Below are positions 25,601 through 47,506 of a DNA stretch of 64,000 bases, piece by piece. The DNA lies in assembly GCA_025284135.1 (NCBI GenBank), contig GCA_025284135.1_3646.1. One strand, 5' to 3'. A program made the position numbers and the translations under genes. Origin of the DNA: a phage. Positions within the stretch are counted from its first letter, which is position 1. Each line of letters begins with the position of its first letter. The notes under the pieces are model-generated. The model was not told the origin of the DNA. It was given only the letters and a program-made list of their open reading frames with translations, and did not search any database.

Positions 25601-26467
25601 TATCACCAGGGTTCAAACGCTGACGCACTTGTAATAGCTCGTCACTACCCTGCTCCGTACGCTGGTACGCTGCTTGTTTACAAAAACACAGCCAACAGAC
25701 CGCAAGGTTGTGTGCAGGAATACATTACCTATTTTGGTGACAGATATACTCGTGCTGGTAACTACGTTGGCGATGTCTTTACTTGGGAAGAATGGAGACA
25801 CGATGCTGGTAAGGGCATTCAGTTAAGACCTAATTACAATTTCGGTGAAAACAGTACTCAGCTGGAAATTCATGTTGGTGCTAATGGTCTTCCATCCAAC
25901 GCCGATAACTTACCTACCAACAGTGCTATACTCCATTATTGGGGTAACGGCAGTGCAGGGACTCGTCCAAACGTGTTAGAGTTTAAGGTTCTTGACGAGT
26001 CTCAATCGGCTTATGTATGGCATTGCGGTACCTTGCCGGATAAATCAAGATATCTTTCTGTAAACGGTGCTGTGAATTGCACATCTGTCAATCAGAGTTC
26101 TGACAGAGACCTGAAAGATAACATATCTGTTATTCCTGATGCGTTAGAAGCTATCCGGAAGATGAAGGGTTATACTTACACTCTTAAAGAGAACGGTATG
26201 CCTTATGCAGGTGTTATAGCACAAGAAGTGCTTGAAGCGTTGCCGGAAGCAGTTAGCTCTTTCGTGCAAAGAAAGGAAATCCCAAACCCTGATCAAGATG
26301 GAACTCCTTTGATAACAGAGGAAAGATTCTACAGCGTGGATTACGCAGCCGTAACAGGCTTGCTTGTCCAGGTTTGCAGGGAACAGGACGATAAAATAAC
26401 CGCCCTTGAGGAGCAGGTTAAAAAATTGACGGAGGTTGTTACTGGGTTGCAAGAGAAACTGAAGTAA
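22655..26467 (+). CDS. tail fibre/tailspike protein with C-terminal intramolecular chaperone (peptidase S74-like) domain
   Basis: 1270 aa; N-terminal anchor domain shared with 19351 gene; C-terminal 122 aa (SDRDLKDNISVIPDALEAIRKMKGYTYTLKENG...AGVIAQEVLEALPEAV...coiled coil) matches the auto-cleaving chaperone domain of endosialidases and T5 L-shaped fibres. Confidence 0.8.
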   Translation: MADIKVVRIESLPATTAVTEDDYLVVQQPDLTRRVKIGDVVHVDGTVSHVISFKEGGKLNGPMDFAYFEEEDLYLRWKGEFPHTVPALSSPYSDGGITDAAWMVYTDPSLREELESTIGASMIMTAEGQSVQDVMDVTVQTANDAKALAQRVDFGTVHTVGDVIHLDNFVGPAVIEEGRTTNYPSAAAGEKFLNGVVSRRDTTTVDGIFRGATSGAMYTIAVTNGVATTKRIALRDEFKRLEANNPTRTVIRAGDDLNTAGYLQLDATGRWGMWNQQTASWQPLAIEQGGTGARDAAGVRINIGAFYKQRAALEPNFNINNLTGNQDGVYYQPMTAYATEANGYPAGSGAGHLIVWQNNANGGTGCRQEYYPFSNVDVWYLRTYQANTNQWTAWQPMVRPRNDDTFRSHIGLGKNNSPAFGHLYLAQYSGDVKSASGILHGDKYNTDGVLEHGYRIYSEVRNDNKAWLTIHLHKGAKGSETHRYLGFREDGVLDCPKYMQVGDLNGQMANWGLGEWIRSSGAERGFWGSKKAAKMVIWDGGMDEQGEGTLEWGVYNNRKAKWEPLPIACGGTSARTVGDAQAQFRIPLAAGTRPYVNLPRTAAMQDGKYYPIIVRTDPNFAATIGTDLTIVTRSSSGGDPMNCATLQCHYRTGGWTDRGDSFQGVINFYQNEKAILGCVSPTRGKQEYVAFYVEARAFPVTVYAGATVIEVSTREVDWQVGNVTGNQDGVKFCAPLASADLSLAIKGDDVTNTRPLVEFKGTSGFYTGGGTMWHYLGTPERYAVMSKMNMPKVELWADGIDYICPGSQTTRKALFSNAGFQAASEGTEDLINNTFTSKCGNGARLQGQAEFRSTPEAGQVIVRDVVGTAHKFYNFNKDGTFFPPGGYVCQTGADWNNQFGNTNPSKIMAGNVNGPEGSMVVGGLSVAFSGNYAFQMAGRLDQLYTRSIEGGNHRAWNKVIQHRGQGLGTEDLNNYDGSREGFYHQGSNADALVIARHYPAPYAGTLLVYKNTANRPQGCVQEYITYFGDRYTRAGNYVGDVFTWEEWRHDAGKGIQLRPNYNFGENSTQLEIHVGANGLPSNADNLPTNSAILHYWGNGSAGTRPNVLEFKVLDESQSAYVWHCGTLPDKSRYLSVNGAVNCTSVNQSSDRDLKDNISVIPDALEAIRKMKGYTYTLKENGMPYAGVIAQEVLEALPEAVSSFVQRKEIPNPDQDGTPLITEERFYSVDYAAVTGLLVQVCREQDDKITALEEQVKKLTEVVTGLQEKLK
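26096..26467 (+). other. intramolecular chaperone auto-processing domain (S74-like) within fibre gene
   Basis: S-D-x-x-L-K signature (QSSDRDLK) with predicted cleavage before the Ser; ends in a coiled-coil segment. Confidence 0.7.
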
Positions 26468-26474
26468 CTGTTTT

Positions 26475-26504
26475 GCCCTCGCTTCGGCGGGGGCTTTTTG
26501 TTTG
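26475..26504 (+). terminator. intrinsic terminator (UUCG tetraloop)
   Basis: GCCCTCGC-TTCG-GCGGGGGC followed by TTTTT. Confidence 0.75.
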
Positions 26505-26506
26505 TA

Positions 26507-26535
26507 TTGCGTATTAACTCAAAATCTGGTAAAAT
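26507..26535 (+). promoter_or_regulatory. sigma70-type promoter, extended -10 (TTGCGT-N17-TGgTAAAAT)
   Basis: Immediately downstream of terminator; shared GGTAAAATA motif. Confidence 0.5.
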
Positions 26536-26566
26536 AACTATCATGATTGTTTAACCTGGAGGCACA

Positions 26567-27157
26567 ATGTTTTTATGGGAAAGGCCTAGATACCTTCCAG
26601 ATATTAGATTGGAGCTGCTGGCAGATATTGTTACGTTTAAAAGTCCGTTTACAGGTAAAACGCAAAAAGTAACCTATGCCACACCTAACTGGAAAGGCAC
26701 TTTGACGGTTTCCAATATCAGCGAGTCACAGTTGCTAGAGCTTAAGAGCTTTGTTGATCAGGTGTATAAAGATGGAAACATCTTTCTTATTAAAACTTAC
26801 GGTCACTCAGTAACAGCTAATGAGCCAATCGCCCTTGGGCCTACTGGTAACGATGATTTTTTGAGGACGGTTGGGTGGGAGCCAAACAGAGACATAGCCA
26901 GAGTTGGGGATAAAATATCTGTCAATGATGAATTGAAAGTGGTAACAGCTCCAGTGCGTAGCGATGGTGTTGGGTCTGCTGTTATAAGCATATCTCCAAG
27001 ACTTAGAAAACCTATTGCCGCAGGGGACACTATGAAGATAATAACTCAATCCCCGAAGGGTAGGTTTCATATCAGAGATATTTATAAAATTAAGCAAAAA
27101 GTCGATGCTATGCAAAAAGGTGATAATATAGTTATCAACTTCTTTGAGGATTTCTAA
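26567..27157 (+). CDS. minor tail protein, lambda gpM-like (putative)
   Basis: 196 aa; segment WKGTLTVSNISESQLLELKSFVDQVYKDGNIFL resembles lambda gpM TYSVTLSVPREEATVLESFLEEHGGWKSFLW (recalled from memory); first gene of an M-L-K-J-like set. Confidence 0.45.
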   Translation: MFLWERPRYLPDIRLELLADIVTFKSPFTGKTQKVTYATPNWKGTLTVSNISESQLLELKSFVDQVYKDGNIFLIKTYGHSVTANEPIALGPTGNDDFLRTVGWEPNRDIARVGDKISVNDELKVVTAPVRSDGVGSAVISISPRLRKPIAAGDTMKIITQSPKGRFHIRDIYKIKQKVDAMQKGDNIVINFFEDF

Positions 27158-27710
27158 GATGATCAGAGCGCCATTAGATAATTTATTTCTTGAAAAGCTG
27201 GAGCTTGATGGTGTTGAGATCTTAATTGCTGCAAAGCTGGAGCTACCGACAGGAACTGTCAGGGTGTGCTCAGGCACTGGTGTTGTAGTAATTGAGGGGC
27301 AACATTTTATAGGGATAGGTGGGTCAGCAACATTAACCGCTGTGTCTGAGAAAGATGCCACCAACTTCGGATCTGTGGTAGCGACATTGAACGGGTTTGA
27401 TCCTAAGTATGTGGGTGATCTGCTGAAGACTGAGTATTCTGGTTGTCGTGCCACGTTGTACATTACCGCTATGGAGAATGGTCTGCCTGTTACAACTAAT
27501 GGCTTGTTTGACGGCCTTATAACAGATATGGCTATTCAGACGGGTGAGAATAGCGCTTTGTCCATATCCATCTCTTCCATCTTCAACAGTTGGTTAAGAG
27601 GTTTTCCTTATCGGTACACGGAGGAAAGCCACAGCTCAAGAAACGATAACGACAGATTTTTTAAATATGTGGATCAGGTGGCGAGCCGCCCGATCATTTG
27701 GGAGGTTTAA
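27144..27710 (+). CDS. minor tail protein, lambda gpL-like (putative)
   Basis: 188 aa; position between M-like and K-like genes; loose pattern similarity to gpL N-terminal region; overlaps neighbours by a few codons. Confidence 0.4.
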   Translation: MRISKMIRAPLDNLFLEKLELDGVEILIAAKLELPTGTVRVCSGTGVVVIEGQHFIGIGGSATLTAVSEKDATNFGSVVATLNGFDPKYVGDLLKTEYSGCRATLYITAMENGLPVTTNGLFDGLITDMAIQTGENSALSISISSIFNSWLRGFPYRYTEESHSSRNDNDRFFKYVDQVASRPIIWEV

Positions 27711-28135
27711 TGAGCACACATCCTCGTCTAGTGGACTGGCAAGAAAGATTGTGGAAAGTGTTTGACGAAGAGGCCACCATACCTTTTGAATGGGGATTCC
27801 ACGATTGTTGCACCTTTGCAGCTAAGTGTGTTGATGCCCAATACGGAACAGATTTTCTTTCTAACTTCGAAGGAACGTATAAAACAGAGTTGGAAAGCAA
27901 AAGATGGTGCATGCTCCGTTTCAAAACCACACACCTGCCTACTATTTTTGATCTCTTTATGACTCGGCTGGATACTCCTAAACAGGTTCAGCGTGGAGAT
28001 ATTGTCATTTTCGAAGGTCTGAACGGCCTCACCGCCGGTGTGTTCTGGAACAACCAGATTTGGGCGAAAGGTGATAAAGGGGTCTTTATGTTCGATATGA
28101 AAGATTCTATCGTTGTTGATGTCTGGAGGTATTAA
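27698..28135 (+). CDS. tail assembly protein with NlpC/P60-like motifs (lambda gpK-like, putative)
   Basis: 145 aa; candidate catalytic Cys in WGFHDCCTF and downstream GDIVIFEG...GVFW pattern typical of NlpC/P60 folds; directly upstream of J-like gene. Confidence 0.45.
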   Translation: MGGLMSTHPRLVDWQERLWKVFDEEATIPFEWGFHDCCTFAAKCVDAQYGTDFLSNFEGTYKTELESKRWCMLRFKTTHLPTIFDLFMTRLDTPKQVQRGDIVIFEGLNGLTAGVFWNNQIWAKGDKGVFMFDMKDSIVVDVWRY

Positions 28136-31100
28136 TGCCAATTGCAATGATTGATAACATCGTTGCTTCTGCAAGATCTTCAAGTTATGACTGGAACGCA
28201 TCCAAGGCAGCTCTGGCTGACAGCCTGAACACTGTTACCACCAGAACTCTGGATAAGATTTTTGAGGGCAACAAATCTTACAGAAGTCAGCAAGATAGAC
28301 AAAAGCTTCTCAGATCTTCTGCTGCACCCTGCTCTGTAGTGTATGGAAAGACACGCACATCTGGATTGCTTGCGTTTTTGGAGCAGGATAGAGACAAAAC
28401 CCTCCATTGTGCTATTGTTCTTGCCAATCACCCTCTGGAAGGTATAGAAGATATACTTATCGACGGTAATCCGATTTCCTCGTATGGAGATCTGGTATCG
28501 TGGGAGCTACATAACGACAGAAAAACATCTGATCCTTTCATGGGTACACACTGCCCATCATGGTCACCAGACATGATAGGTAGAGGGATCAGTTGGCTAC
28601 GTGCCAGCTTCAGGTTTGACCCTAACAAGTTTCCTTTTGGGTTGCCAAACGTTACACTTGTCAAGGTTGGTAAAAAATGCTATGATCCTCGTATCAGTAA
28701 AGAGGTGTATACCAATAACGCGGCCTTGGTGATTCTGGACTATTTAAGAACGTACCTTAAATGTCCTGACGAAACCATCAACTGGGAGTCCTTCAAGGAG
28801 GCTGCCAACATATGCGATGAGGCGGTAAAAAACGCTGACGGAACCAGTGAGCGCCGTTACACAATTAATGGCGAGTTCGATATGGATGAGGCTCCAGCAA
28901 GTATTATGGCAGAAATGCTGAAAGCTTGTGGAGCAGATCTCAGCTATGTAGCTGGTAAGTATGGTTTGCTGGTCGGTGCATATTATGGTCCGGCAACAAT
29001 GACACTGAGTGAGGATTGTGTCTGCGGTGAGGTAAAGATCTATCCGGAAGCCTCATTTGACAAAAGATCCAACACAATAACTGGCAGATTCACTAGTCCG
29101 ACCAAAGGGTATTCTGAAACAGATTTTCCATCAGTGTTTGTCCCAGAGTGGATAGAGAAGGATGGAGAAAGAAAGATAATCGATATAGACTATCGCTTTG
29201 TTACCAGTCCTTATCAAGCTCAACGTGTTTCTGCAATCTTCCTAAGACGTGCCAGAGCTGGCAGGATTATTGAAGTCACCTGCAATATGCGAGGTTTTAA
29301 ATTTAAGCCTGGCCGTTACGTTACAATGAATCTTCCAAGTATTGGTATAGTAGGCCAAGAAATGAGGGTTCTTGAATGGGAGTTCACCAAAAAGGGTGGT
29401 GTCAAGGTAAAACTTCGTCAAGATGCTAAAGAGTGGAATGATGCCACAGGGCAACTTCCGGATTCTGGTGATGTAGATATTCCGATATCTCCATCTGGTG
29501 TAGCTCAACCGCAAAACTTCAGATACTCCGTCCTCCAAGCTGGGGAAATAACTCACGGTGTTCTGGCTTGGGACAACGTTGGGACTTACGCTCAAAATAT
29601 TGTGCAGGTAAGAAAGAACGGAGAGATTGTTTGGACAGCACAGACAGTTGAGCAGTTTGTCCGAGTAGAAGGCTTGACCAAGGGGTCATACACAGCAACC
29701 GTGGTTGCAACATCTTATAAAGGTGGTGTATCTCCAGAAGCGTACTGCGAGTTTAACATTCAGGCACCTGAAGCTCCTGTTTCTGTAGAGGTTAAGCAGG
29801 GATACTTTGCTATCACCTTGATTCCACACAGCAGGGATTTAGCAAGTGTAAGCACCCAGTATGACTTTTGGACATCTGGTATGACAAGGTTGCCCGACAC
29901 CAGCGATGCAACCGTTACTTCAAACGCCACCCGTATGGGTGTTGGTTCAACTTGGACATCCGAAGGTCTGCAGAACGATAAGGTTTATTATTGGTATATT
30001 CGAACCACAAACGCTTTTGGTAGCTCTCAGTTTGTAGAGTGTGCTGCACGCTGCTATACCTCCATTGAGGATTTGATGCCTCAGATAGATGCTGAATTCA
30101 AAAAGACAGAAACTTATAAAGAGTTGATGAGCACTTTGGATTCCTCTATTGAAGAGGTTGAAAATCGTGTCACAGAACTTAACAGGTACATGGATGGTAG
30201 AGTTGACGAGGCTTTTGACCACATGGAAGGTGAGTTCTCTAGAGTAGACAAGCTGTATGCTCAGTTGGGAGATAGGGTTGGAATATTCATCCAAGAAACC
30301 CACGACAACTTCCAGGACGTTAATGGAACGCTTACCACTCTAGATCAGAAACTGGTAGCCACTCAGAACAAGTTTGCAGATGATCTTTCTAAAGAAAGTG
30401 GCAAGCTTGCTTCTCTAATCCAGACCACTAACAAAGCTACAACCGATCTGTTAAATCAGAAAACTGAAGCTTTGGACGAGAAGATTGTTTCAACCAGGGG
30501 TGAGTTGGAAGATGCTTTAGCGCAGGAAAGCTCTGAGCTGAACTCCCTGATTGTATCAACCAATAAAACGACTACAGATCTCCTTAATCGGAAAACCGAG
30601 GCTTTAGACAATAAGCTGACGGCAACGAAAGGTGAGTTGACCAACAATCTGCAGAATGAGAGTGCTAAACTATCGTCCTTGATTGAGTCAACCAACAAAT
30701 CCACCACTGATCTTCTTAATAAGAAAACAGAGGCGTTGGATGAAAAACTGGTTGCTGCACAGGGCGAGTTGACTGAGCAGATCGGAGATGTTGAAAAAGG
30801 CTATCTGGCTGGTGATAAGAGCCTAGAGGGCAAGTTGAATACTCAAAGATCTGAGTTGGATGCGAGCATTCTGAGCACTAACCAGGCCACTGTGGACTTG
30901 CTGAACAGAACTTCTGAGACTCTTGACCAGAAGATTAGCCAGACCAACGCCACAGTGTCCAAAAACTACACCACGCTTGATGGTAAGATAAACACCGCCA
31001 AGTCTGATCTTAATACGTTGATTTCTACCACCAACAAGGCCACAACTGACCTGTTGAATCAGAAAACGGCAGCTTTGACTGAGCAGTTAACCACTGCTAA

Positions 31101-32280
31101 AGGGCAGATTACAACCAACACCAATAATATTACTGGGTTGGACAATAAGCTGACTCAGACTAAGAAAGATTTGTCTGCGAATATTTCTGAAACTAATAAC
31201 GCCACTGTTGATCTGATTAACGGCACAGCGTCAGCTATTCGTCAAGAACTTGCTGTTGCTAAGCAGGAGATCATTGATGGTGTTGGTGATGTGTCCGAGA
31301 TCAGGGCTGCAGTAGCTACAACAGCTAAGGCTGTAACCGACTTGGAGGGTAAAGTAAGTGCTCAATGGGGCACAAAAATACAGGTAGACTCCGCAGGGAA
31401 TAAATATGTTGCAGGTATCCAGTTGGGGATGGAAGGGTCTGGGGGCCAAGTTCAATCCTACTTCATGGTTAGTGCAAACAATTTTGCGGTATACAACCCT
31501 GGCAATGGAACAGCAACCCTTGCTTTTGCAATCAAGAACAACCAAGCGTTCTTGAAAGACGCTTTTATAGAGAACGGGACGATTTCATCTGCCAAGATCG
31601 CACAAGAAATCTCGTCAAACAACTACGATGGCAACGGGTACCATAAATACGGTTGGTATATTAACAAGAACGGGCACGCCCAATTTATGGATGTGTGGGT
31701 GAAAGGCAACATCAACGCTAGTTCTGGTAACTTCACAGGGGCAGTTAACGCCACTAGTGGTACCTTCCGTGGGGATGTTTATGCCAATAATGGTAGCTTT
31801 AGAGGCACCATAGATGCAACCGGAGGTACCTTCCGTGGTCGTGTAGAAGCTTCTGTTATCCGTGCTAACCAGTTCGAAGGTGCAATTGTTGCGCACAGGA
31901 CTTATGGGGATTGTGCTCCAGTATATAACTCCCGGCAAAGGGTTTGCCGTTGGAGGTGGAGATACGTAGATAACGTTTCAGGTCAGGGTAAGAACGTAAC
32001 ATTCTTCTTTAAACTGAATGGTACTCTTGCCAGCTCCCAGCTCAACGTTTGGATAGCCGGACATCAAATCCTTGCAGGTAAGAAGTACGGAAACGACAAC
32101 AACGGTATGTGTGCGGTAGGGATAACAGGTCTTGGTGAACAAACCATAGATATTGTTGTTGAAATCTACACACCATGGTCAACGTCTTCTGTAACAGGGG
32201 TCGCAATATCCTGTCCTACTGTTGTGGTAAGCCGTTCTAACTCAAGCTTCCAGGGACCTTGGAACGAGTCTCACGACTAA
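28135..32280 (+). CDS. central tail fibre / tip attachment protein, lambda gpJ-like, with inserted coiled-coil repeat array
   Basis: 1381 aa; N-terminal HPLEGIEDILIDGNPIS and AALVILDYLRTYLKCPDETINWESFKEAANICDEAV, FN3-like GYFAITLIPH...YYWYIRTTNAFGSSQFVE, and C-terminal KYVAGIQLGMEGSGGQVQSYFMVSANNFAVYNPGNG...AFLKDAFI all parallel recalled lambda gpJ segments. Confidence 0.75.
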   Translation: MPIAMIDNIVASARSSSYDWNASKAALADSLNTVTTRTLDKIFEGNKSYRSQQDRQKLLRSSAAPCSVVYGKTRTSGLLAFLEQDRDKTLHCAIVLANHPLEGIEDILIDGNPISSYGDLVSWELHNDRKTSDPFMGTHCPSWSPDMIGRGISWLRASFRFDPNKFPFGLPNVTLVKVGKKCYDPRISKEVYTNNAALVILDYLRTYLKCPDETINWESFKEAANICDEAVKNADGTSERRYTINGEFDMDEAPASIMAEMLKACGADLSYVAGKYGLLVGAYYGPATMTLSEDCVCGEVKIYPEASFDKRSNTITGRFTSPTKGYSETDFPSVFVPEWIEKDGERKIIDIDYRFVTSPYQAQRVSAIFLRRARAGRIIEVTCNMRGFKFKPGRYVTMNLPSIGIVGQEMRVLEWEFTKKGGVKVKLRQDAKEWNDATGQLPDSGDVDIPISPSGVAQPQNFRYSVLQAGEITHGVLAWDNVGTYAQNIVQVRKNGEIVWTAQTVEQFVRVEGLTKGSYTATVVATSYKGGVSPEAYCEFNIQAPEAPVSVEVKQGYFAITLIPHSRDLASVSTQYDFWTSGMTRLPDTSDATVTSNATRMGVGSTWTSEGLQNDKVYYWYIRTTNAFGSSQFVECAARCYTSIEDLMPQIDAEFKKTETYKELMSTLDSSIEEVENRVTELNRYMDGRVDEAFDHMEGEFSRVDKLYAQLGDRVGIFIQETHDNFQDVNGTLTTLDQKLVATQNKFADDLSKESGKLASLIQTTNKATTDLLNQKTEALDEKIVSTRGELEDALAQESSELNSLIVSTNKTTTDLLNRKTEALDNKLTATKGELTNNLQNESAKLSSLIESTNKSTTDLLNKKTEALDEKLVAAQGELTEQIGDVEKGYLAGDKSLEGKLNTQRSELDASILSTNQATVDLLNRTSETLDQKISQTNATVSKNYTTLDGKINTAKSDLNTLISTTNKATTDLLNQKTAALTEQLTTAKGQITTNTNNITGLDNKLTQTKKDLSANISETNNATVDLINGTASAIRQELAVAKQEIIDGVGDVSEIRAAVATTAKAVTDLEGKVSAQWGTKIQVDSAGNKYVAGIQLGMEGSGGQVQSYFMVSANNFAVYNPGNGTATLAFAIKNNQAFLKDAFIENGTISSAKIAQEISSNNYDGNGYHKYGWYINKNGHAQFMDVWVKGNINASSGNFTGAVNATSGTFRGDVYANNGSFRGTIDATGGTFRGRVEASVIRANQFEGAIVAHRTYGDCAPVYNSRQRVCRWRWRYVDNVSGQGKNVTFFFKLNGTLASSQLNVWIAGHQILAGKKYGNDNNGMCAVGITGLGEQTIDIVVEIYTPWSTSSVTGVAISCPTVVVSRSNSSFQGPWNESHD
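30394..31266 (+). repeat. in-frame array of ~6 diverged ~132-nt (44-aa) coiled-coil repeats inside J-like gene
   Basis: Protein repeats of the form ES(G/S/A)KL(A/N/S)SLIxSTNKxTTDLLNxKTEALDxKL; first three units exactly 132 nt apart (30394, 30526, 30658); DNA diverged mostly at synonymous positions. Confidence 0.7.
31720..31851 (+). repeat. four tandem 33-nt (11-aa) Gly-rich repeats inside J-like gene
   Basis: SSGNFTGAVNA / TSGTFRGDVYA / NNGSFRGTIDA / TGGTFRGRVEA. Confidence 0.7.
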
Positions 32281-32286
32281 CCTTTA

Positions 32287-32315
32287 AAGCCCCGCTTCGG
32301 CGGGGTTTATTTTTA
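32287..32315 (+). terminator. intrinsic terminator (UUCG tetraloop)
   Basis: CCCCGC-TTCG-GCGGGG followed by TTTATTTTTAT. Confidence 0.8.
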
Positions 32316-32323
32316 TGCTCAGA

Positions 32324-32352
32324 TTGACTATTGTTACAAAATTTGGTAAAAT
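32324..32352 (+). promoter_or_regulatory. sigma70-type promoter, extended -10 (TTGACT-N17-TGgTAAAAT)
   Basis: Hexamers with 17-nt spacer directly after terminator. Confidence 0.55.
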
Positions 32353-32385
32353 ACCTTGTAGAGATTTTCATACCGGAGGAGTGAC

Positions 32386-33876
32386 GTGGCTAAGTATGGA
32401 TTGACAGAGGCTGGTTTCGTTATACCAACCCTAAATGACCTAATCGTTGAAACTAAGCAAAGCCTGATCCGTGCTTTTGGCGAAAACTTCAACGTACAGA
32501 GTAACTCCGTTGCAGATAAGCTGACCACTATCTTCAACGAGCGAGAGTATCAACTTATTCTTATGGCAGCATCTGTATATGCATCACAGACGCTGTATGG
32601 GGCAGAAGGTATTTACCTAGATGAGCTTCTTGGAAGACAGGGTATTTACCGAAGAGGCCGTTCTAAATCATCAGGTACCTGCCAGTTGACAATCAACACA
32701 ACTGTGCCGTACAATATGATTTATGATTCCAAAACTTATACGCTGGACAGTGGCAACTTTGTTCTTAGCAACGATGTGCAAGTAGCAGGGAATCTTATTG
32801 CTCACAGAATAAATGCTCCAGACCTAAGGATTGGGAAATACAACTTCCAAATTACCAACCAGACAGATGGAAGTATCAAAACAAAAAGCCTGGTTTTAAC
32901 AGATAAGTCTCTGGACTCTTCTGATTTGCCAAGCTTTTACGGAGAGATTAAGCAATTCATTGTCGATAATACAACTCTGTTGAACGACGATTTGATTCAA
33001 ATCGATATGTTGACAGGAACGTTGTGGATAGGGTACAATTCGAATCTTGATCAGGTTGGACTTAATAGTAGGGTAGATTTCAGAGTATCCCCGATTGTAG
33101 GGGAAAGAACTATCACTCTAGATGTTATCGCTAACGAGGCTGGTGAGCTGTCAAGGGAGGCAGAAACCGTGACAACAATGTCGCCTACCCCCAGCGGATT
33201 TATTAAGCTTACCAACCGAGAAAGATTCAATGAGGGAAGGGATGTTGAAAAAGACTCAGAGTATCGCTTAAGAGCTTCCAGCACAAAACAGTTAACATCG
33301 AAGGCTACCCGTCCTGCAATCCTTAGCGCTGTAAGCGAGGTAAAAGGTGTTGAGAAAGTGAGAGTGTTCTCCAACAACACCGATAAAACTGATGCTAAAG
33401 GTATACCTCCTTACAAGTTCCAAGTGGTTGTGTTTGGTGGTGCAACGGAGGACATTTGCCAAGCACTTTACCAAACTATAGCCTGTACGAACAGGACTTA
33501 TGGTAATATTTTCTACGATATCGCTACATCTGACGGTCAAACTGAAAGAATTTATTACTCCAGGGCAAATACCTACCGCCTAGATGTAAGAATTACCTAT
33601 TCCGGCGCTGCGCTTTCCACAACCGAAAAAGATGCCATTGTAGAGGCTCTTTTGCAGGTTGTTAACGGACTTGATGTTGCAGATACGTTGTACAATATCC
33701 AATTGGTCGGTGCTGCATCCGCTGCTGTGTCGATAGGTAGATTTAATAGACTGGTAATTCAAGTTAAACCAGTAGGAGCTTCTGATGAAGCTTACACGAC
33801 AAACGATATTGTTGCGAACATGACCGAGGTGTTTGACCTCGACGAAAGTAATATAACTTTCCAACAAACTATTTAA
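32386..33876 (+). CDS. baseplate wedge protein, Baseplate_J-like (P2 gpJ / Mu gp47-like, putative)
   Basis: 496 aa; GTG start with GGAGG SD; DSEYRLRA motif matching the D-x-D-Y-R-L-R signature recalled from P2 gpJ, followed by alternating beta-strand-like segments. Confidence 0.5.
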   Translation: MAKYGLTEAGFVIPTLNDLIVETKQSLIRAFGENFNVQSNSVADKLTTIFNEREYQLILMAASVYASQTLYGAEGIYLDELLGRQGIYRRGRSKSSGTCQLTINTTVPYNMIYDSKTYTLDSGNFVLSNDVQVAGNLIAHRINAPDLRIGKYNFQITNQTDGSIKTKSLVLTDKSLDSSDLPSFYGEIKQFIVDNTTLLNDDLIQIDMLTGTLWIGYNSNLDQVGLNSRVDFRVSPIVGERTITLDVIANEAGELSREAETVTTMSPTPSGFIKLTNRERFNEGRDVEKDSEYRLRASSTKQLTSKATRPAILSAVSEVKGVEKVRVFSNNTDKTDAKGIPPYKFQVVVFGGATEDICQALYQTIACTNRTYGNIFYDIATSDGQTERIYYSRANTYRLDVRITYSGAALSTTEKDAIVEALLQVVNGLDVADTLYNIQLVGAASAAVSIGRFNRLVIQVKPVGASDEAYTTNDIVANMTEVFDLDESNITFQQTI

Positions 33877-33887
33877 GGCGGCGAGAT

Positions 33888-34574
33888 ATGGCAGAGATTA
33901 AGTCGGATGTTAACCACATCCACACTCTGCCAGATTTTGTTCAGGGAGGTCTTGACTACCTACCTGGAGATTTTCTGGCTGAGAAGGTTAATTTAGTCAC
34001 ATTCTTAACCGTATACCTTAAAAGGTTGGAGGATGTTGATAAGATGCTGGTAGGTTTGGCTGAAGGAAGATTGCTTAACAATGCCAGCGGAAGATACCTT
34101 GACGAAGTTGGTAATCAACTTGGTATTCTTAGGAATGGACTTTCAGATGCTGATTTTCGTGCCACACTAATTATTCAGCAGGCCGCAGCATCAAGGGGCG
34201 GGACTCGCGAAGATGTCATCTCCACCTTGCGACAATTGTTCGGAAGAGACAATTTCGATACGTGGAAAGGAGACAACTTCAGGTTTGACATAAATATTAG
34301 AAAAACTTGCTTTGACATATTGCAGTCTATCGATCAGATCTTAGATATGCTACCATTACCTTGTCATTTGCGTCTTACAGAATCGCAAGGGCAAGCTTTT
34401 GGTTTTGAAGGGGACTCTACAGCTCTTGGCTTCGGATCAGTGTGGGAAGAAAACCAATTCGGAGTTGGTGGGCTGGCTACTTTGCTATATGTTCCTGACG
34501 TAAGACCTGATTGGGACACCACAACCATTTATTGTGAAAGTATTACAGTAAACGCAACTAGACAGGAGGGTTAA
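33888..34574 (+). CDS. baseplate protein, XkdU / P2 gpI-like (putative)
   Basis: 228 aa; N-terminal YLPGDFLAEKVNLVTFLTVYLKRLEDVDKMLVGLAEGRLL resembles the tail protein I/XkdU family motif; position directly after J-like wedge gene. Confidence 0.45.
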   Translation: MAEIKSDVNHIHTLPDFVQGGLDYLPGDFLAEKVNLVTFLTVYLKRLEDVDKMLVGLAEGRLLNNASGRYLDEVGNQLGILRNGLSDADFRATLIIQQAAASRGGTREDVISTLRQLFGRDNFDTWKGDNFRFDINIRKTCFDILQSIDQILDMLPLPCHLRLTESQGQAFGFEGDSTALGFGSVWEENQFGVGGLATLLYVPDVRPDWDTTTIYCESITVNATRQEG

Positions 34575-36646
34575 TGGCAACAGCTGTTTTTAAACCTTAC
34601 CGTGATTACTCTACAATGGCTGCACAGTTTCATTACCGAACAGTTCAGGATACTGCCGTTCCTGGTAGGGATTATAATCATGTTGAGGGCGATGTAACTA
34701 TCCCAATTGGGGCAACCAGTATTGAAATCCCAGTGGAAATTGTTGACAAATTACCCAACAGGTTACCAAGAAGCTTCTTTATGGAGTTTTCATCAAAATC
34801 TCAAGGGGTGATGATTGGGACACAAAGGGCAAAATGTACAATAGTTTCAGATGAGAATCTTGACAGGATATCTTGGGATACTGTTGAGGAGAGAATGTTT
34901 CACCCAAGATATTGGGTTACAAATACTCAGCAGACTGAAAGTACCTGTATTGTTGCAGATGACAACTGTTGTATTAACCGTTTAGTGTCAAGAACATATG
35001 GAGGTATGGCTGGGTGCATTTGGGAAACAGTTGACAAGTATGACCATTTCGGTATTGGGTTTGATGATCACTATGAGATGAGAAACACCAAGCTTTGGTT
35101 CAGAATGTCAATAACCAATGCCAGCAACTTCTCCACCCCTGAAAAGATGATTATGACTGTAGACCTTGTCGATGGCACAATCATCTATGTTCCTTTAGCT
35201 CAATATGCTGTCAGCATCTCAGAGGATAAGAATGTTGCAGAAATTCATATTGATTTTGAGGACTGCGTCGGGATGGACCAGAACAACAACATGATGGGTG
35301 TTGATCCTCGGCAGGTTAGAAGGATTTTAATACCACTCATGCCTAAAGACTGGGTAAGTAATAGCACAGACCCGAGAACGGAAAATGTAGAGTGTGAGTT
35401 GCGCCTAGATTTGCTTCAGCCAGACACAGGCTGGAAAATGATGCAACTTAACAATATTCAGGTGAGAGAGCACGACGTTGGGATCTGCACCGCATATGAC
35501 GATATGTGGAACGTATCCCCTTTAAGGGTGTTGAACAATATCAAGCGTCTGGGCTATACCGGAACCATAAACCATTATGTTGGTATGAGTCATTATTATG
35601 ACTACACATGGTCAGGAACTCAATGGTCTATAAACAGAACAGGAGCGCTAAACGCTGCAGCTTATAAATGGCATGATGATTTTATGTACAATGCCAAACG
35701 ACATAACTTCGACGTTATGCAATCTGTAAGTTTTGAGCTTTTCAGCGATGCCTGCCCGTTGGAATGGACCCAAAGAGACTGGAACGATAACTACGCTAAA
35801 ACAGGGTATACACCTTGTAGCTACCTCCTGTCTCCAACCATTGAAGAGGGTATGAATTTCCTTACTGCAGTATTTAAGAATTTTGCATCAGCCGCTATGA
35901 GAAACAACCTGCCAGTGATTATGCAGGTTGGTGAACCGTGGTGGTGGTACAATACCGATACTCGTAGACCTTGTATTTATGATTACCCTACAAAACAGGC
36001 GTTTTATGATGAGACAGGCGAGTATGCATTAGATATTGGGACTATTGACGATCCTAAAACTGGCGGTGTTTACGATAAGTATGTAGCATTTTGTCGTGGT
36101 AAGCTTGGCGCTCGTATTGCGGCTATTTCAAAGGCAATAAAGGCACACGCTGCATCAGCTCAGATGACAGCTCTGCTGTTTTTCCCAACCATTATGGAAA
36201 CCGAGCTTACGCAAAAGCTTAACCTTGCTGACCAATATAAAAAGGAAGCAGGTGCTCTTGATTTCTTCTGCACCGAGTGCTACGATTGGGTGATGCAGGG
36301 AGGTATTGAAAAGGCAAAAGAGTCTGTAAACATACCTATCGTTAAGTTAGGTTGGCAACCGTCTGAAATACAATACCTTGCAGGGTTCGTTCCTAGTAAA
36401 GAGCTTGCTCCGGTATATGGCTACGACCCAACCAGGAATTACCAAGAATTTTTATGGAGATGTATTTGCGGAAACATGGCAACTATAGAGTATAGATACC
36501 CTGAGGTAAAACAGTATGTGTGGGCATACCCGCAAGTAATGTCTGACAGCATCACTGTTACCGCTAGAGATTCTACCGTGCTTCATATGGGGCAGGTTGC
36601 TCTGAAAGGGTATGTAGAAGATGTTGTCCCGCCAGACTTCTCATAA
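34574..36646 (+). CDS. baseplate-associated protein with N-terminal Calx-beta-like segment
   Basis: 690 aa; N-terminal AVPGRDYNHVEGDVTIPIGATSIEIPVEIVD resembles the Calx-beta motif; Trp/Tyr-rich remainder; function unknown. Confidence 0.3.
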   Translation: MATAVFKPYRDYSTMAAQFHYRTVQDTAVPGRDYNHVEGDVTIPIGATSIEIPVEIVDKLPNRLPRSFFMEFSSKSQGVMIGTQRAKCTIVSDENLDRISWDTVEERMFHPRYWVTNTQQTESTCIVADDNCCINRLVSRTYGGMAGCIWETVDKYDHFGIGFDDHYEMRNTKLWFRMSITNASNFSTPEKMIMTVDLVDGTIIYVPLAQYAVSISEDKNVAEIHIDFEDCVGMDQNNNMMGVDPRQVRRILIPLMPKDWVSNSTDPRTENVECELRLDLLQPDTGWKMMQLNNIQVREHDVGICTAYDDMWNVSPLRVLNNIKRLGYTGTINHYVGMSHYYDYTWSGTQWSINRTGALNAAAYKWHDDFMYNAKRHNFDVMQSVSFELFSDACPLEWTQRDWNDNYAKTGYTPCSYLLSPTIEEGMNFLTAVFKNFASAAMRNNLPVIMQVGEPWWWYNTDTRRPCIYDYPTKQAFYDETGEYALDIGTIDDPKTGGVYDKYVAFCRGKLGARIAAISKAIKAHAASAQMTALLFFPTIMETELTQKLNLADQYKKEAGALDFFCTECYDWVMQGGIEKAKESVNIPIVKLGWQPSEIQYLAGFVPSKELAPVYGYDPTRNYQEFLWRCICGNMATIEYRYPEVKQYVWAYPQVMSDSITVTARDSTVLHMGQVALKGYVEDVVPPDFS

Positions 36647-44800: not shown

Positions 44801-47463
44801 TGCTGAGATCAAACATGGATGGGACATCCATGTCTATGCAAGTTCCAGTAACAAACGGGTACAAACGTGTTGTGATGATCATTAAGTGCGACTTAATAGG
44901 TAAGCAAGTTCTTGCAGAAAACGGAACCTCAACACATTTATTCGAGACTGCTCTGCATTATCAGTTTGCTGATTCACCTTTTGCAGGGGATAAGAGAATA
45001 TCTGATACAGACAATGCTCGATGCAAGAAATTTATGCTTGGTGGTGGATGGTGGTGGTATGAATTTGATTTAACAGACAAATTCACTGACACGTCTAAAG
45101 TGGTGACAGGGCTTCGTCTAGATCTTGGCGAAAACATGCACAAAAGTGTTTGTGATGGCACCTACGGTGACCCAACAATCTACTTAAAGTATGTTTCTTT
45201 TGAGCACCCAGAGGATGTCGTTTATGGTCCAAAACTGAGACTGTTTGGCAATTGGATTGCTAAAGACAGGGCAGGTATGGGTAAAAAGGTAAGAGGGTTC
45301 TTAGTGGATGCAGGAACAGAAGACATGTTGGTTAATGCAGTGTGGCCTGAATTACCGGGAACTCAGTGGGACAACTCTGCTAAATCTATAAACTGGTTCA
45401 ACATTCACAGAGCTATGTGGACAACTAACTGCTACCTGTGGAAAGAGTTGAATGACGGCGCTTTCGGGTTTACAGGTGGCAGAAGAATGGCAATCATCTG
45501 CTGGACAACGCTGCAAAGATGTTATGACCATGACTACGAGATTGGAGGTAGGGCATGGAAAAATATTAGAGATAGAATCATAACTAACTTCGCAGACCCT
45601 AATGGTGGTGGAGCGTATGGCTTCGACTGCAGCAGGCTCATCCATTTGAACGGGTCCTCTGCATATAAGAAAGAGGGTTACTCTGGGTCCATGATTGAGT
45701 GGGGTCTGGTGAAAGATGCTCGCGTATTGATGGGTCAACAACTTGCTGCTGCAATAGGACCGAACGCAGTACAATCTGTTAAACCAGCGTGGTTCGATAT
45801 CCCATTATGGTCCTCTGGAACACCAGGAACTGCTGTGATCAACCCTACCACTGGGGATCTGGAAATCTCTTGGGAGGACTTGAAGCAGGTCGGTGGTTGG
45901 GACAAAACAGGGTATCAGGTTCAATGGTGGAGGGCTGATGGATCTTTAGCCGCTGATGAGTTTGTTAGGGACAATTTCTACACCATGTCCTCTGCAAAAG
46001 CACAACAACTGTTCGGTCAGGCTACCCCGTCAACGATCACCATGTCCATGTGCTGTAAAGACAACAGGACTGGAGCTTTGGGGCCAAGGGTTGCTAAAGT
46101 TTTCTCAGGTATCAAATGGAATCTTCCTGTTCAAAGTGTTGCATGGAAGCAAATAGGTGATAACAAGCTGCTGGTTACTCCTGCTTGTCAGTTCAACGCA
46201 ACTCTTAACGTTGATCCTGCTGTTGCGGCAAACTCAGCTAAAGCTTCTGACTTCTCTGTGTCTAACACTGCTATGGCAGATGTGAGGAAGATTGACACGC
46301 TGAACGCCAGAATTACCTGTAAAAACACTTATGGCACATTCCAGATCATCAACAACTTCACAGACGCGGACTCTAAGGTAGTGAGGACAGCAAGCCAGAC
46401 TCTGAGTTTAGGAACTCTGGCCTATGCGGCCCTGATCACTGAACAGTCAGCAACACTCCAAGGGGGTGGTGTAGGCAAGTCCATTACAACACCTGTGTGG
46501 AAGCCAAATGAGTGGGTTGTGTTTGATTTGACTGTAGACTTCTCCAGCGATAATAACTGGACATGGGTAAGGAATTGTTTGTCACAGTTGATGGGCGGTC
46601 CAAGCTCCATTAGCGATAGTCACGACTCTACTGACCCGAGTGTGTTCCAGGTAGGCAAAACTCACCCGGAGACTGGAGCAACGTTGCCTGACAGGAAGTA
46701 TGCTTTGGTTTGCATCTCTTACGGGAAGGCAGATGTCACCTTCTCAGGGACACACACTTATAACGGAACCTACAATTTCTCAAGGAAGTATAGTCTCAAA
46801 GCGGGAAACATTGTAGACGAGGTTGGTGTGCTGTATAATCCTGGCAACGGCATAGGGATTGTGGGTGGTAAACTGCAGATGCAGGAACCTTCTATTACCC
46901 CTTCCAATGTGTCTGGGATTAGAAAGACTTGGGAAAGCAGTAATACCAACATTGCAACAGTGGATGCTACCACAGGGCTGGTAACATTTAAAGCTACTGG
47001 GAATGTCACCATAAAGTTTGTAGTTACTGATGATGCAGGGCGCAAAACGTCTTCAACATCGTTTACTGTCAGACAGATGGCACCTCAGTGGTTTATTTGG
47101 GAAGGAAATCCTCTTGACGGGACTTACCCTAGACCTGCAGGAACGTCCAATATGAGGGTCTTTACCGGTCCGGTCATGGACAATCCGACCACAACCACCA
47201 ACCCTACATTTTTTGGTGCTTACATACCTGAAATTATTGGCCTACCAAGGAACCAGATACAACTGCTTTTCGGAGCAGGTGTTGATGGCCTAGCCACTTT
47301 TGGGTACAGTGACAACATCGATGCAGCCAGAAGCTCGGGTTGGATTGGATTTAAGTTCCAGTGGAACCCTGGTGGTAGAACATTAGGTCTTGCAAGCATA
47401 GGTGTTATGCTACCTGGTAACCAGCAATACCATCTCGAAGCTTATACAAACTTCCCTAGTTAA
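41839..47463 (+). CDS. giant structural protein (1874 aa) with RCC1-like repeats and C-terminal Ig-like (Big_2-like) domain; probable adhesin/fibre
   Basis: N-terminal repeated Gly-rich blades (ITGYNKFGECRTGD, LYGSGNNTYGSLHVD, FYGQDVWGDDTWR) resembling RCC1/beta-propeller repeats; C-terminal SNVSGIRKTWESSNTNIATVDATTGLVTFKATGNVTIKFVVTDDAGRKTSSTSFTV resembles bacterial Ig-like group 2 domains; last gene of the plus-strand structural block. Confidence 0.45.
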   Translation: MLPIPLLKLGRHFLDKRGGIKELAVLSYPIDNSDGTSTTVSYVNSLAILFDDGQLNITGYNKFGECRTGDRNPINYPSETAWNVDHVWRADRAFVIRTFDNQFFYIGCTAGLIGSDAAGGNDVCVREWTPLPEQIVKGLHLDTHPERLVEVMGGINNTVWVIAEAEGTGILNLYGSGNNTYGSLHVDKNQHATPVKIGETSENPETGPWKNPSINCEVHDNSVIFGGPRGFWIAGYDFLRNNSRNDLVWPPVQITRNDLRGIPADEEWKGFMCGPNGAIIATQRMHTPNDQQLVNVFYGQDVWGDDTWRSLNITYTHEVIMARGYGTSGIFFNNGTKQYRGFSRNLCNDIGAQSANNSPRANFIHYRALATAKYVEQRLPVSWTESVYFQGIHREGFLGTFTVVNGKLWWSGIPRGSFAGSNNLFGGRLNSQGFTEVPENWYKNVPVDSWGVDDIFDVNGVSSVSNIYIGDTVKMKLKPQPEGATFIIDKIELVNAAGTVVTDANYQFSTNWNHGGANEVVVTQYNRNVNRRGLYSVKITYHDKHGTGRTHTTRTLNWNTIVPAYPSNGKWHTVGRNKQFHVNNTVYFGLNGAQPVVEGDTAYMVRLHRMDAGSATYDVTQEIYDQRRNTYNNLVQTQAVWEFNPNGRGGKMLQVNEQNGTSLTVHEHPDPWRDPGKPNPGARTLKIVSHDVGYFGIRWEATVRYADGTTNNIGITLGGTSEDNSLKIAYTPRGISIDSMDVVRNGYGDVNVKVTLGEHLGGERIIMYAFDHDPRTNGTYADQAWSYLISAPEPNTKEFYYGMKRDVCKKTGTHDWIAICVKDERTAWDEPVNRWFIGIPARSDKYVEEYIVCMGGTNLNLCWNEDANKYSDYDYMRDYSCNQWFNQPGYADRQARVNPAIFTDTQVFLTKQANEVQTFKNKYDPNKWFYNCYGAFFWGPGELPNGGSCFEAATYASDRFMGQVKKYKIIPGPETLGNAVDPYIVMTVLRSNMDGTSMSMQVPVTNGYKRVVMIIKCDLIGKQVLAENGTSTHLFETALHYQFADSPFAGDKRISDTDNARCKKFMLGGGWWWYEFDLTDKFTDTSKVVTGLRLDLGENMHKSVCDGTYGDPTIYLKYVSFEHPEDVVYGPKLRLFGNWIAKDRAGMGKKVRGFLVDAGTEDMLVNAVWPELPGTQWDNSAKSINWFNIHRAMWTTNCYLWKELNDGAFGFTGGRRMAIICWTTLQRCYDHDYEIGGRAWKNIRDRIITNFADPNGGGAYGFDCSRLIHLNGSSAYKKEGYSGSMIEWGLVKDARVLMGQQLAAAIGPNAVQSVKPAWFDIPLWSSGTPGTAVINPTTGDLEISWEDLKQVGGWDKTGYQVQWWRADGSLAADEFVRDNFYTMSSAKAQQLFGQATPSTITMSMCCKDNRTGALGPRVAKVFSGIKWNLPVQSVAWKQIGDNKLLVTPACQFNATLNVDPAVAANSAKASDFSVSNTAMADVRKIDTLNARITCKNTYGTFQIINNFTDADSKVVRTASQTLSLGTLAYAALITEQSATLQGGGVGKSITTPVWKPNEWVVFDLTVDFSSDNNWTWVRNCLSQLMGGPSSISDSHDSTDPSVFQVGKTHPETGATLPDRKYALVCISYGKADVTFSGTHTYNGTYNFSRKYSLKAGNIVDEVGVLYNPGNGIGIVGGKLQMQEPSITPSNVSGIRKTWESSNTNIATVDATTGLVTFKATGNVTIKFVVTDDAGRKTSSTSFTVRQMAPQWFIWEGNPLDGTYPRPAGTSNMRVFTGPVMDNPTTTTNPTFFGAYIPEIIGLPRNQIQLLFGAGVDGLATFGYSDNIDAARSSGWIGFKFQWNPGGRTLGLASIGVMLPGNQQYHLEAYTNFPS

Positions 47464-47473
47464 CAGGAGGCAA

Positions 47474-47506
47474 ATAAAAAGGGGCCGTTTGGCCCCTTTC
47501 TTTTTA
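47474..47506. terminator. bidirectional intrinsic terminator between convergent transcription units
   Basis: GGGGCC-GTTT-GGCCCC hairpin flanked by A-run upstream and T-run downstream. Confidence 0.8.

Follow-up and report, generated by a model that had tools for sequence, protein, structure and literature searches.

The family of J-type tail fibers is already known to have helical stalks that vary in length, so the stalk described here is a largely ordinary finding. The central fiber of F-type pyocins (F2: PDB 25vf) is J-like and carries an extended α-helical shaft before its tip domain, and the F2-pyocin shaft has been seen experimentally to be a three-stranded coiled coil (PMC13455828). The pyocin shaft is shorter than the one analyzed here and is not reported as being built from 44-residue hendecad repeats. 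The accessible part of the RBPseg study (PMC12143355; Sci Adv 2025) describes a Vequintavirinae fiber with "large coiled-coil domains", a central-fiber-like N terminus and a C-terminal β-helix. Class TC5 of that study can be likened to our protein by description, although the TC5 member may not be this exact gene; the J-type classes TC3, TC4 and TC9 have coiled coils of varying length, and repeat units, a hendecad period and alleles are not described in that part of the study. The phi92 cryo-EM paper makes no mention of a J-like protein, and the Pa193 and P7-1 papers mention gpJ solely in their reference lists.

The window, the whole 64,000-nucleotide stretch of phage DNA that we analyzed, comes from a Vequintavirus, an rV5-like E. 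coli phage with a contractile tail; its nearest genomes are Vequintavirus myoviruses that carry tail sheath, hub and spike genes. The open reading frame at 28135..32280 (+) encodes a J-type fiber of 1381 residues and is the orthologue of rV5 gp37, a protein found in virions by mass spectrometry (PMC3606486). Thin 70-nm fibers were seen occasionally on rV5 virions (PMC3606486). At the nucleotide level the gene is 97.5% identical to those of phages VB-EcoM-WM and BP9, and about 117 Vequintavirus genomes carry the same gene with the same neighbors. Whereas rV5 gp37 has a four-unit shaft and 1279 residues, the window protein has a six-unit shaft, with two extra 44-residue units and 14 further residues. 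Orthologues of rV5 gp37 are annotated as "central tail fiber J", "tip attachment protein J", "Omp-alpha" or "lateral tail fiber protein with fibronectin type III domain". The original prediction had called the protein a central fiber, a label that is unproven; the phage is a myovirus and has hub and spike genes of its own. Antisense open reading frames inside the fiber gene are considered spurious because no related record annotates them, and an Rfam search found no RNA family on either strand of 26000-33000. The coordinates of the features discussed below are collected in Table 1.

Table 1. Features of the fiber gene and of the surrounding gene block (aa, residues of the fiber protein)
Feature	Position (nt)	Strand	Evidence
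Intrinsic terminator closing the upstream fiber gene, start of block	26475..26494	+	GC-rich 8-bp stem, T-run
Gene 1, distal-tail-protein-like, 196 aa	26567..27157	+	phrog_1302 'distal tail protein', E 8e-50
Gene 2, tail protein, 188 aa as mechanical ORF	27144..27710	+	phrog_2048, E 9e-68
Gene 3, DUF6950 protein, 145 aa as mechanical ORF	27698..28135	+	Pfam DUF6950, 115 bits
Hub-like N-terminal region (aa 43-487)	28261..29595	+	hhalign to lambda-J-type profile
Two Ig/FN3-like domains (aa 493-652)	29611..30090	+	Pfam; 30% identity to lambda J 666-850
Predicted α-helical shaft (aa 644-1078), 0% Pro	30064..31368	+	AlphaFold2 monomer, hydrophobic period
Exchangeable shaft cassette, allelic segment (approximate borders)	30215..31300	+	nt identity drop vs rV5-type genomes
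Tandem units 1-3, each 44 aa (132 nt), four hendecads	30394..30789	+	Direct repeats, HMM, periodicity
18-aa spacer with GYLAGDK, predicted helix break	30790..30843	+	AlphaFold2 interruption aa 891-895
Diverged units 4, 5, 6 (aa 904-947, 955-998, 1009-1052)	30844..31290	+	Unit-HMM
Phage_Tail_Tip domain (aa 1059-1199)	31309..31731	+	Pfam PF09327; 30% identity to lambda J 849-990
Four 11-aa Gly-rich repeats (aa 1197-1240), presumed β-helix	31723..31854	+	DNA copies, motif
C-terminal domain (aa 1241-1381), predicted all-β	31855..32277	+	Lineage-specific
Intrinsic terminator closing the block	32287..32308	+	9-bp stem, T-run; annotated in Murica

Domains outside the shaft

The description of the protein as gpJ-like is supported by Pfam Ig_J_second (106 bits; cut-off 27), by Phage_Tail_Tip (134 bits; cut-off 22) and by assignment to phrog_31, "central tail fiber J" (E 1.5e-161); Pfam Ig_J is weaker, at 24 bits and below its cut-off of 29. 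The FN3 pair, the Phage_Tail_Tip domain and the β-helical turns are common to the window protein and lambda gpJ (PDB 8iyk and others), and the hub region is homologous at the profile level. The claimed match to lambda gpJ at both ends holds for the N-terminal 490 residues at that level and fails for the last ~150 residues. A 24-sequence profile aligned by hhalign to a lambda-J-type profile over J residues 78-649 (probability 98.1%, E 1.3e-13), whereas Pfam Phage-tail_3 and FNIII-A_GpJ were not detected in the hub region at E < 0.1, and BLASTP returned nothing. With J-like tail-tip proteins of Queuovirinae the same region shares 52-59% identity. Against the NCBIfam model lambda_TipJ the fiber scored 146.5 bits, below the cut-off of 1950 that marks full-length equivalence. 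The LamB-binding C-terminal domain is lambda's and has no counterpart in the window protein, and the tail of the window virion, unlike that of lambda, is contractile.

Lambda J 666-850 and 849-990 align to residues 497-684 and 1064-1228 of the window protein, on either side of the shaft, and about 380 residues are thus left without a lambda counterpart; lambda has about 24 residues where the window protein has about 400. The second repeat set that had been predicted near the C terminus, at 31720-31851, is real. Its units are SGNFTGAVNAT, SGTFRGDVYAN, NGSFRGTIDAT and GGTFRGRVEAS, with DNA copies 33 nt apart, and their counterpart in the lambda alignment is J 955-990. Four matches to the motif G.F.G.[VI].A occur in the protein, and even one match occurred in only 6 of 2000 protein shuffles; P0134 and P0142 contain long arrays of this motif, which Pfam scores as Bactofilin. 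Homologues of the C-terminal domain were found in Vequintavirus only, plus one J-like representative (P0131), and only two proteins came back when the C-terminal 192 residues were used as the query for homologues. Residues 1230-1381 had no match among PDB sequences (best E 0.36, to TonB), and the AlphaFold2 model of residues 1059-1381 was unusable (pLDDT 38).

The 44-residue repeats and their hendecad period

Both repeat sets of the original prediction, six units of about 44 residues and four Gly-rich units of 11, are real features of the gene. At the DNA level, direct repeats begin at 30424 and follow one another at intervals of 132, 132, 186 and 153 nt, with identities of 60-80%, which bears out the exact 132-nt periodicity described for the first three units; Tandem Repeats Finder reported no array here, the copies having diverged too far. 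With an HMM of the three clean units (1-3), six units were identified, at residues 754-797, 798-841, 842-885, 904-947, 955-998 and 1009-1052, with i-Evalues of 6e-30, 1e-28, 9e-30, 3e-10, 2e-15 and 4e-5, respectively. These span nt 30394-31290, so the range first given (30394-31266) was essentially right, as was the consensus quoted for it (ESxKLxSLIxSTNKxTTDLLNxKTEALDxKL). Regular tandem order is confined to units 1-3; units 4-6 have diverged and follow at uneven spacings of 62, 51 and 54 residues. From residues 953-1002 onward, the region also aligns to the solved J-like fibers 25vf, 9l9p and 23gd, and the F2-pyocin fiber 25vf matches residues 968-1180 with E 9.5e-17. The sole match of the shaft alone, to the P22-type tail needle 4lin (E 1.2e-3), was treated as compositional similarity.

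Comparison of units 1-3 points to an old duplication kept by selection, as had been suggested: synonymous sites are saturated (pS 0.79-0.94) and pN is low (0.22-0.28), a pattern of purifying selection. The accompanying claim that divergence is mainly synonymous therefore holds per site, whereas in raw counts synonymous and non-synonymous differences are about equal (about 25 each). Across all 13 units of the three shaft alleles described below, eight positions are invariant (L5, I9, T12, N13, T16, D18, L19 and N21), among them those of the motif TNxxTxDLxN; three of the eight (N13, D18 and N21) fall outside core positions.

The repeats had been described as heptad-like, and this proved wrong. 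In units 1-3 the hydrophobic period is 3.67, not 3.5, where the power is 119.6, compared with at most 79.6 in shuffles and with 1.3 at period 3.50; over the whole shaft the period is 3.64 (power 267 versus a shuffle maximum of 90). In both cases the power at 3.5 comes to no more than about 1-5. Each 44-residue unit thus consists of four hendecads (4 x 11). The period is that of hendecad coiled coils (11/3 = 3.67), and large hydrophobic residues occupy 11-mer positions 5, 8 and 9 in 9, 6 and 12 of 12 cases, with the core-like positions a, d and e filled; this likeness to hendecad coiled coils in general is one of geometry only and implies no homology. The AlphaFold2 monomer model (pLDDT 58, low confidence) places helix at residues 644-890, 896-1050 and 1053-1078, near-continuous and without hairpins, with a break at residues 891-895 where GYLAGDK lies.

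Three shaft alleles and the role of the shaft

The original prediction spoke of an inserted array, which overstates the case. Among 68 J-like representatives, the same FN3-to-tip linker ranges from 21 to 2460 residues, with lambda at the short end, and the linkers of relatives are Pro-poor, with a period of 3.5-3.6 in most. The representatives were obtained by an exhaustive representative search, used in place of a full-length homologue search that near-identical Vequintavirus clusters had filled up, leaving no distant relatives in its results. Since the linker is helical across the family and very variable in length, the array enlarges a shaft that was already there and is not a foreign insertion; only the 44-residue unit itself is lineage-specific.

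Repeat number differs among related phages. Three shaft alleles, of six, four and three units, occur in about 14, 59 and 43 GenBank phages, respectively, and the window carries the longest and rarest. Nucleotide identity to rV5-type genomes drops sharply, from 93-100% outside the cassette to 59-78% within it, and the GYLAGDK segment is present in the six- and four-unit alleles and absent from the three-unit allele. The shaft is thus a recombination cassette with three old alleles in a gene of mosaic structure. Different alleles are found within the single assigned species Vequintavirus FFH2, and in 11 genomes they showed no co-variation with other variable fiber segments, assorting independently. 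An origin of the variation by diversity generation or hypermutation was rejected because many of the differences that separate the alleles are synonymous (94 synonymous versus 52 non-synonymous differing codons, in a comparison covering residues 701-750 and 851-1050).

The age of the repeats, the hendecad period, the predicted helicity, the homology of the flanks, the family-wide variation in length, the independent RBPseg modeling, the behavior of the cassette and the presence of the orthologue in rV5 virions together favor a model in which residues 644-1078 form the helical shaft of a J-type tail-tip fiber and set the reach of its tip, with the cassette supplying three lengths. We consider this model probable. 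By analogy with trimeric fibers, the shaft would most likely be a parallel three-stranded coiled coil, largely made up of 44-residue modules of four hendecads. Hendecads would give a nearly straight bundle, with the period of 3.64-3.67, instead of a heptad supercoil. Such a shaft would join the hub-like and FN3 part to a β-structured tip, consisting of the Phage_Tail_Tip domain, the 11-residue Gly-rich turns and the lineage-specific C-terminal domain, and would determine how far that tip reaches. At an assumed 0.15 nm per helical residue, the roughly 435, 333 and 253 helical residues of the six-, four- and three-unit alleles would correspond to shafts of roughly 64, 49 and 37 nm. The shaft probably grew by old internal duplications, in which part of an ancestral shaft was copied, and its three alleles are ancient. 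We infer that the shaft is rigid and that it serves as a length-setting stalk, and any placement of the fiber on the contractile-tailed virion is likewise an inference. Against a passive spacer stand the eight invariant positions per unit, since a passive spacer would not need the constraint seen outside the core. If the shaft were a spacer, its length should also show some tie to the host surface or to partner fibers, and no such link was found in the 11 genomes; moreover, the phage already has a hub, a spike and several other fibers.

Alternatively, the shaft could be a docking platform for other fibers, with the conserved polar motif of each unit or the GYLAGDK break as the binding site. 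The F2-pyocin fiber is a detectable homologue, and its side fibers attach at shaft residue G955, where a six-helix bundle forms (PMC13455828). Side fibers of both the F2 and F7 pyocins attach at a glycine kink in the J-like central-fiber shaft, and non-helical breaks in predicted shafts may be side-fiber attachment sites (F7-pyocin preprint, 10.64898/2026.01.28.702463). The predicted break at GYLAGDK and the invariance of TNxxTxDLxN are consistent with such a role, and the assignment of genes to fibers in Vequintavirinae is not settled in the literature (PMC8594841). However, the three-unit allele does without GYLAGDK, the independent assortment of the alleles leaves no co-varying partner, and the monomer model is of low confidence. 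We therefore regard docking as unlikely, though as an alternative to be taken seriously.

The variation in length might also be neutral, the alleles persisting through drift and recombination with no selected difference in reach. This would fit their failure to co-vary with anything tested in the 11 genomes, their occurrence together in phages assigned to one species and the roughly 100-fold variation of shaft length in the family. However, the alleles are of far greater age than the sequence around them, as the identities on the two sides of the cassette borders indicate, and all three are common, which looks like long-term maintenance; purifying selection within the units likewise speaks against neutrality, which we think rather improbable.

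It is more doubtful still that part of the shaft is a metastable fold switch, in which the coiled coil next to the tip refolds to a β-prism on receptor binding. A 163-residue segment of the F7-pyocin central fiber is reported to refold in this way, and the same is predicted for many siphophage J-like fibers; the family and the position, directly N-terminal to the β-prism seed, are the same here (10.64898/2026.01.28.702463). The motif SxSxxMxxLxS of the same preprint matches at residues 1023, 1031 and 1066, conserved in all three alleles. Yet the motif is not enriched (6 matches versus 3.4 +/- 1.8 in shuffles, 13% of which reach 6) and occurs once each in units 1 and 3 and not in unit 2, a contractile tail does not require an energy source of this kind, and a switch of 435 residues would far exceed any reported size. 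Both side-fiber docking and the switch from coiled coil to β-prism are shown in pyocins and would be hypothetical for the window fiber. Finally, an apolipoprotein- or spectrin-like antiparallel helical domain, or a compositional artifact, is highly improbable: the weak Pfam matches to Apolipoprotein (31 bits versus a cut-off of 90) and Spectrin_7 all fall below curated cut-offs, the predicted helix runs on without hairpins, the flanking domains are those of trimeric fibers, and the repeat and periodicity statistics exceed those of all shuffles.

A tail-tip module in the baseplate cluster

The helical-shaft fiber is the last gene of a four-gene block bounded by two intrinsic terminators, both annotated in phage Murica as well, the first at the same place. 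The closest relatives of the fiber outside the genus are Queuovirinae J-like proteins, such as bas24_0020 of the siphovirus Seuratvirus SeppeHuegi, which are 50-59% identical over the hub and FN3 domains and have the tip domain and Gly-rich 11-mers in common with it; by BLASTP the SeppeHuegi protein is 50% identical (E 0). Its shaft, by contrast, is about 110 residues long and lacks the 44-residue unit, and its C-terminal domain is different. The homology extends to the other three genes of the block. Gene 1 shares 33% identity (E 2e-29) with the gene that directly follows the SeppeHuegi tape-measure gene, gene 2 is 40% identical (E 1e-46) to the second gene there, and gene 3, whose stop overlaps the J start (TAATG), is 45% identical (E 6e-46) to a 144-residue "putative minor tail protein"; relatives annotate gene 2 as a 552-nt gene. 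Single-sequence PDB searches and NCBIfam returned nothing for these three upstream proteins. All four genes are thus homologous to the Queuovirinae siphovirus tail-tip module and stand in the same order. In SeppeHuegi the module directly follows the tape-measure gene, whereas here it lies between a lateral fiber gene and the baseplate wedge gene. The terminator-bounded block is restricted to one genus and is absent from one related myovirus.

Gene-by-gene homology and collinearity raise the possibility that a complete Queuovirinae-type module was captured by a Vequintavirus ancestor and is a working organelle on the contractile-tail baseplate. We put this forward tentatively and consider it on the whole unlikely; its assembly and function on a myovirus are putative. 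If the proposal is correct, the phage would have a second, siphovirus-style recognition device whose reach is tuned by swapping shaft cassettes of three, four or six units, and the shaft of the captured module might also carry other fibers or refold on binding.

With this block, the baseplate cluster of a very common therapeutic group of E. coli myoviruses contains a whole siphovirus tail-tip module, whose product is present in the virion. The repeat array itself follows a known design and is ordinary as such; one shaft of this kind has been solved in the F-type pyocins. What distinguishes this stalk is that it occurs in three swappable lengths. Because the cassette is cleanly bounded and both ends of the protein are constant, the three lengths form a ready-made system to test whether fiber reach matters for adsorption, and the cassette is also a safe splice point for fiber engineering.

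Repeat units and their period

The middle of the J-type fibre protein is indeed repetitive, as the original prediction had it. Direct DNA repeats begin at 30424 with spacings of 132, 132, 186 and 153 nt, and an HMM built from three clean units recovered six ~44-aa units at aa 754, 798, 842, 904, 955 and 1009; Tandem Repeats Finder reported no array, the copies being too diverged at 60–80% identity. Between units 1–3, synonymous sites are saturated (pS 0.79–0.94), whereas pN is 0.22–0.28. The duplication is therefore old and its protein sequence conserved, which agrees with the proposal of an ancient duplication kept by selection. The second short repeat set is likewise real: four Gly-rich 11-residue turns at aa 1197–1240 follow the pattern xGxFxGx[VI]xAx, which occurred at least once in only 6 of 2000 shuffles, and align with lambda J 955–990. 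Other fibre proteins carry long arrays of this turn motif, which Pfam scores as Bactofilin, a beta-helix family.

Coordinates of the features discussed
Feature	Window position	Strand	Remark
Variable fibre segment	24001-26500		C-terminal part of 1270-aa fibre gene
Strong terminator	26475-26494		start of four-gene block
Four-gene block	26567-32280	+	
J-type fibre ORF	28135-32280	+	1381 aa
44-aa units 1-6	30394-31290	+	unit HMM
GYLAGDK spacer	30790-30843		aa 886-903, 18 aa
Strong terminator	32287-32308		end of four-gene block
NCTSP-domain ORF	34574-36646		690 aa
Variable fibre segment	42001-43500		
Variable fibre segment	47001-47500		

The description of the units as heptad-like proved wrong. The hydrophobicity of units 1–3 has its Fourier peak at 3.67 residues (power 119.6, whereas none of 300 shuffles exceeded 79.6), with a power of only 1.3 at period 3.50. 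Large hydrophobic residues take positions 5, 8 and 9 of each 11-mer in these units, so the 44-residue unit corresponds to four hendecads. The whole shaft (aa 643–1065) peaks at 3.64 (power 267; shuffle maximum 90) and contains no proline. An AlphaFold2 monomer model from a shallow alignment predicts helices at aa 644–890, 896–1050 and 1053–1078, at a low confidence (pLDDT 58) expected for a single chain of an oligomeric rod. We infer that the shaft is trimeric because its flanking domains are trimeric-fibre domains and because its F2-pyocin homologue (25vf, matching aa 968–1180, E 9.5e-17) has a three-stranded coiled-coil shaft (PMC13455828). The main predicted helix break is LAGDK, within the GYLAGDK spacer, which resembles the F2-pyocin glycine kink where F2 side fibres dock.

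A variable helical linker in J-type proteins

The expected match to lambda gpJ at both ends held for only one of them. Lambda J 666–850 and 849–990 align with aa 497–684 and 1064–1228, at 30% identity each, and ~380 residues of the window protein correspond to a handful in lambda J. BLASTP detected no similarity to lambda J in the N-terminal 490 aa, which nevertheless matched a lambda-J-type profile when compared as a 24-sequence profile (probability 98.1%, E 1.3e-13). The last ~150 aa have no PDB match, and their homologues are essentially confined to Vequintavirus.

An exhaustive search with aa 493–1240 returned 1037 representatives (E ≤ 1e-3), and linker lengths were taken from 68 of the best 150, those with both flanking domains. 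Linkers measured 21–24 aa in 10 (lambda type), 52–205 aa in 26, 223–465 aa in 19, including the window protein (406 aa) and rV5 (304 aa), and 519–2460 aa in 13. They are Pro-poor with periods mostly of 3.53–3.58; among the J-like linkers compared, only Vequintavirus proteins have a period of 3.63–3.64 or are recognised by the 44-aa unit HMM. A helical shaft of variable length is therefore a trait of the family, not the inserted array first proposed, and what is lineage-specific is the 44-aa hendecad unit as a way to build it. The RBPseg study (PMC12143355) had already described J-type fibres with coiled coils differing in length and a Vequintavirinae fibre carrying a large coiled coil; the window shaft belongs to this known kind, as the longest of its Vequintavirus alleles.

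Shaft alleles and the four-gene block

The J-type gene matches 117 phage records, including Escherichia phages VB-EcoM-WM and BP9 (97.5% DNA identity). All 117 are rV5-like Vequintavirus, contractile-tailed and ~131–143 kb in genome size. The rV5 orthologue, gp37 (1279 aa), was found in virions by mass spectrometry, and thin 70-nm fibres were seen occasionally (PMC3606486). Eighteen 'Campylobacter phage' GenBank records (MG0656xx) match the gene, eight of them listed at full coverage with 96–97% identity; this host label is doubtful because all six records examined are marked UNVERIFIED and classified as Vequintavirus.

The proposed comparison of repeat number among related phages yielded alleles of six, four and three units. 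Relative to the window gene, EduardKellenberger (rV5 type) is 93–100% identical in nucleotides outside aa ~695–1055 and 59–78% inside, and the rV5 type is shorter by exactly two units (88 aa) plus 14 aa. The third allele, found in JeffSchatz, Murica, FFH2 and LL12, encodes 1199 aa with three units and is without the GYLAGDK spacer present in the other two. Essentially all 117 genomes, from a collection of 50,697 phage records, carry a long (~14), medium (~59) or short (~43) allele, and records placed in a single species, Vequintavirus FFH2, carry different ones. When the 40-kb fibre locus of 11 genomes was compared tile by tile, the cassette assorted independently of other variable fibre segments. 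These alleles are therefore much older than their flanks and are swapped by recombination.

Other parts of the locus vary too. The strongly allelic end of the 1270-aa fibre gene, which closes with a Peptidase_S74 chaperone domain, is 73–88% identical in most genomes and 98–99% in EduardKellenberger and Murica, and varies independently of the shaft. Of two further variable segments, the one at 47001–47500 is only ~70% identical to all nine compared genomes covering it and looks like an allele specific to the window.

Four abutting genes, of which the J-type gene comes last, are homologous to those after the tape-measure gene of the siphovirus Seuratvirus SeppeHuegi and share their order (33, 40, 45 and 50% identity in gene order). 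Tblastn with aa 1–652 found 117 records at ≥95%, none at 60–95%, and then Queuovirinae siphoviruses at 52–59%; all weaker matches sampled were 42–83 kb genomes. By contrast, myovirus relatives of the adjoining baseplate wedge protein form a graded series. One, a Klebsiella phage, has a wedge protein 60% identical to that of the window, but in its syntenic 21 kb none of the four genes has a detectable homologue. Collinearity, identity gap and this absence together suggest that the block is a siphovirus tail-tip module captured by the genus Vequintavirus; we found no paper discussing it so, within incomplete literature coverage. Mechanical ORF calling places TTG starts for genes 2 and 3 of the block at 27144 and 27698, upstream of those annotated in related phages, where the two genes measure 552 and 426 nt. 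Their real starts probably lie near 27159 and 27710, with which the block genes would abut, not overlap.

The literature ties the ECA/NGR glycan receptor of Vequintavirus to a deacetylase-domain fibre homologous to N4 Gp65. The 690-aa protein, with Pfam NCTSP_N, TIM-barrel_NCTSP (names derived from non-contractile tail sheath protein) and Calx-beta domains, is a candidate of this kind.

Possible role of the shaft

The original observation was thus confirmed, and its interpretation is supported in part. On the best-supported reading, the shaft is a stiff and almost straight helical stalk whose length would set how far the beta-structured distal tip extends and would be altered in register-compatible steps. 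The indels between alleles (14, 88, 18 and 11 residues) can each be written as a sum of 7s and 11s. The support this gives is weak, since sums of that kind yield many lengths.

A passive spacer leaves one feature unexplained: eight positions per unit (L5, I9, T12, N13, T16, D18, L19 and N21), among them those of the motif TNxxTxDLxN, do not vary in any of the 13 units that the three alleles contain; N13, D18 and N21 lie outside the core. Such invariance exceeds what a spacer needs and would suit a docking platform for other fibres, on the model of F-type pyocins, which we consider unlikely. It leaves a weaker opening for a shaft whose coiled coil refolds to a beta-prism, a still more improbable reading given that the fold-switch sequence signature is not enriched in the window shaft. 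With a reach-setting stalk as the favored reading, the points that merit follow-up are the length polymorphism of the cassette and the apparent capture of a siphovirus module by these phages.
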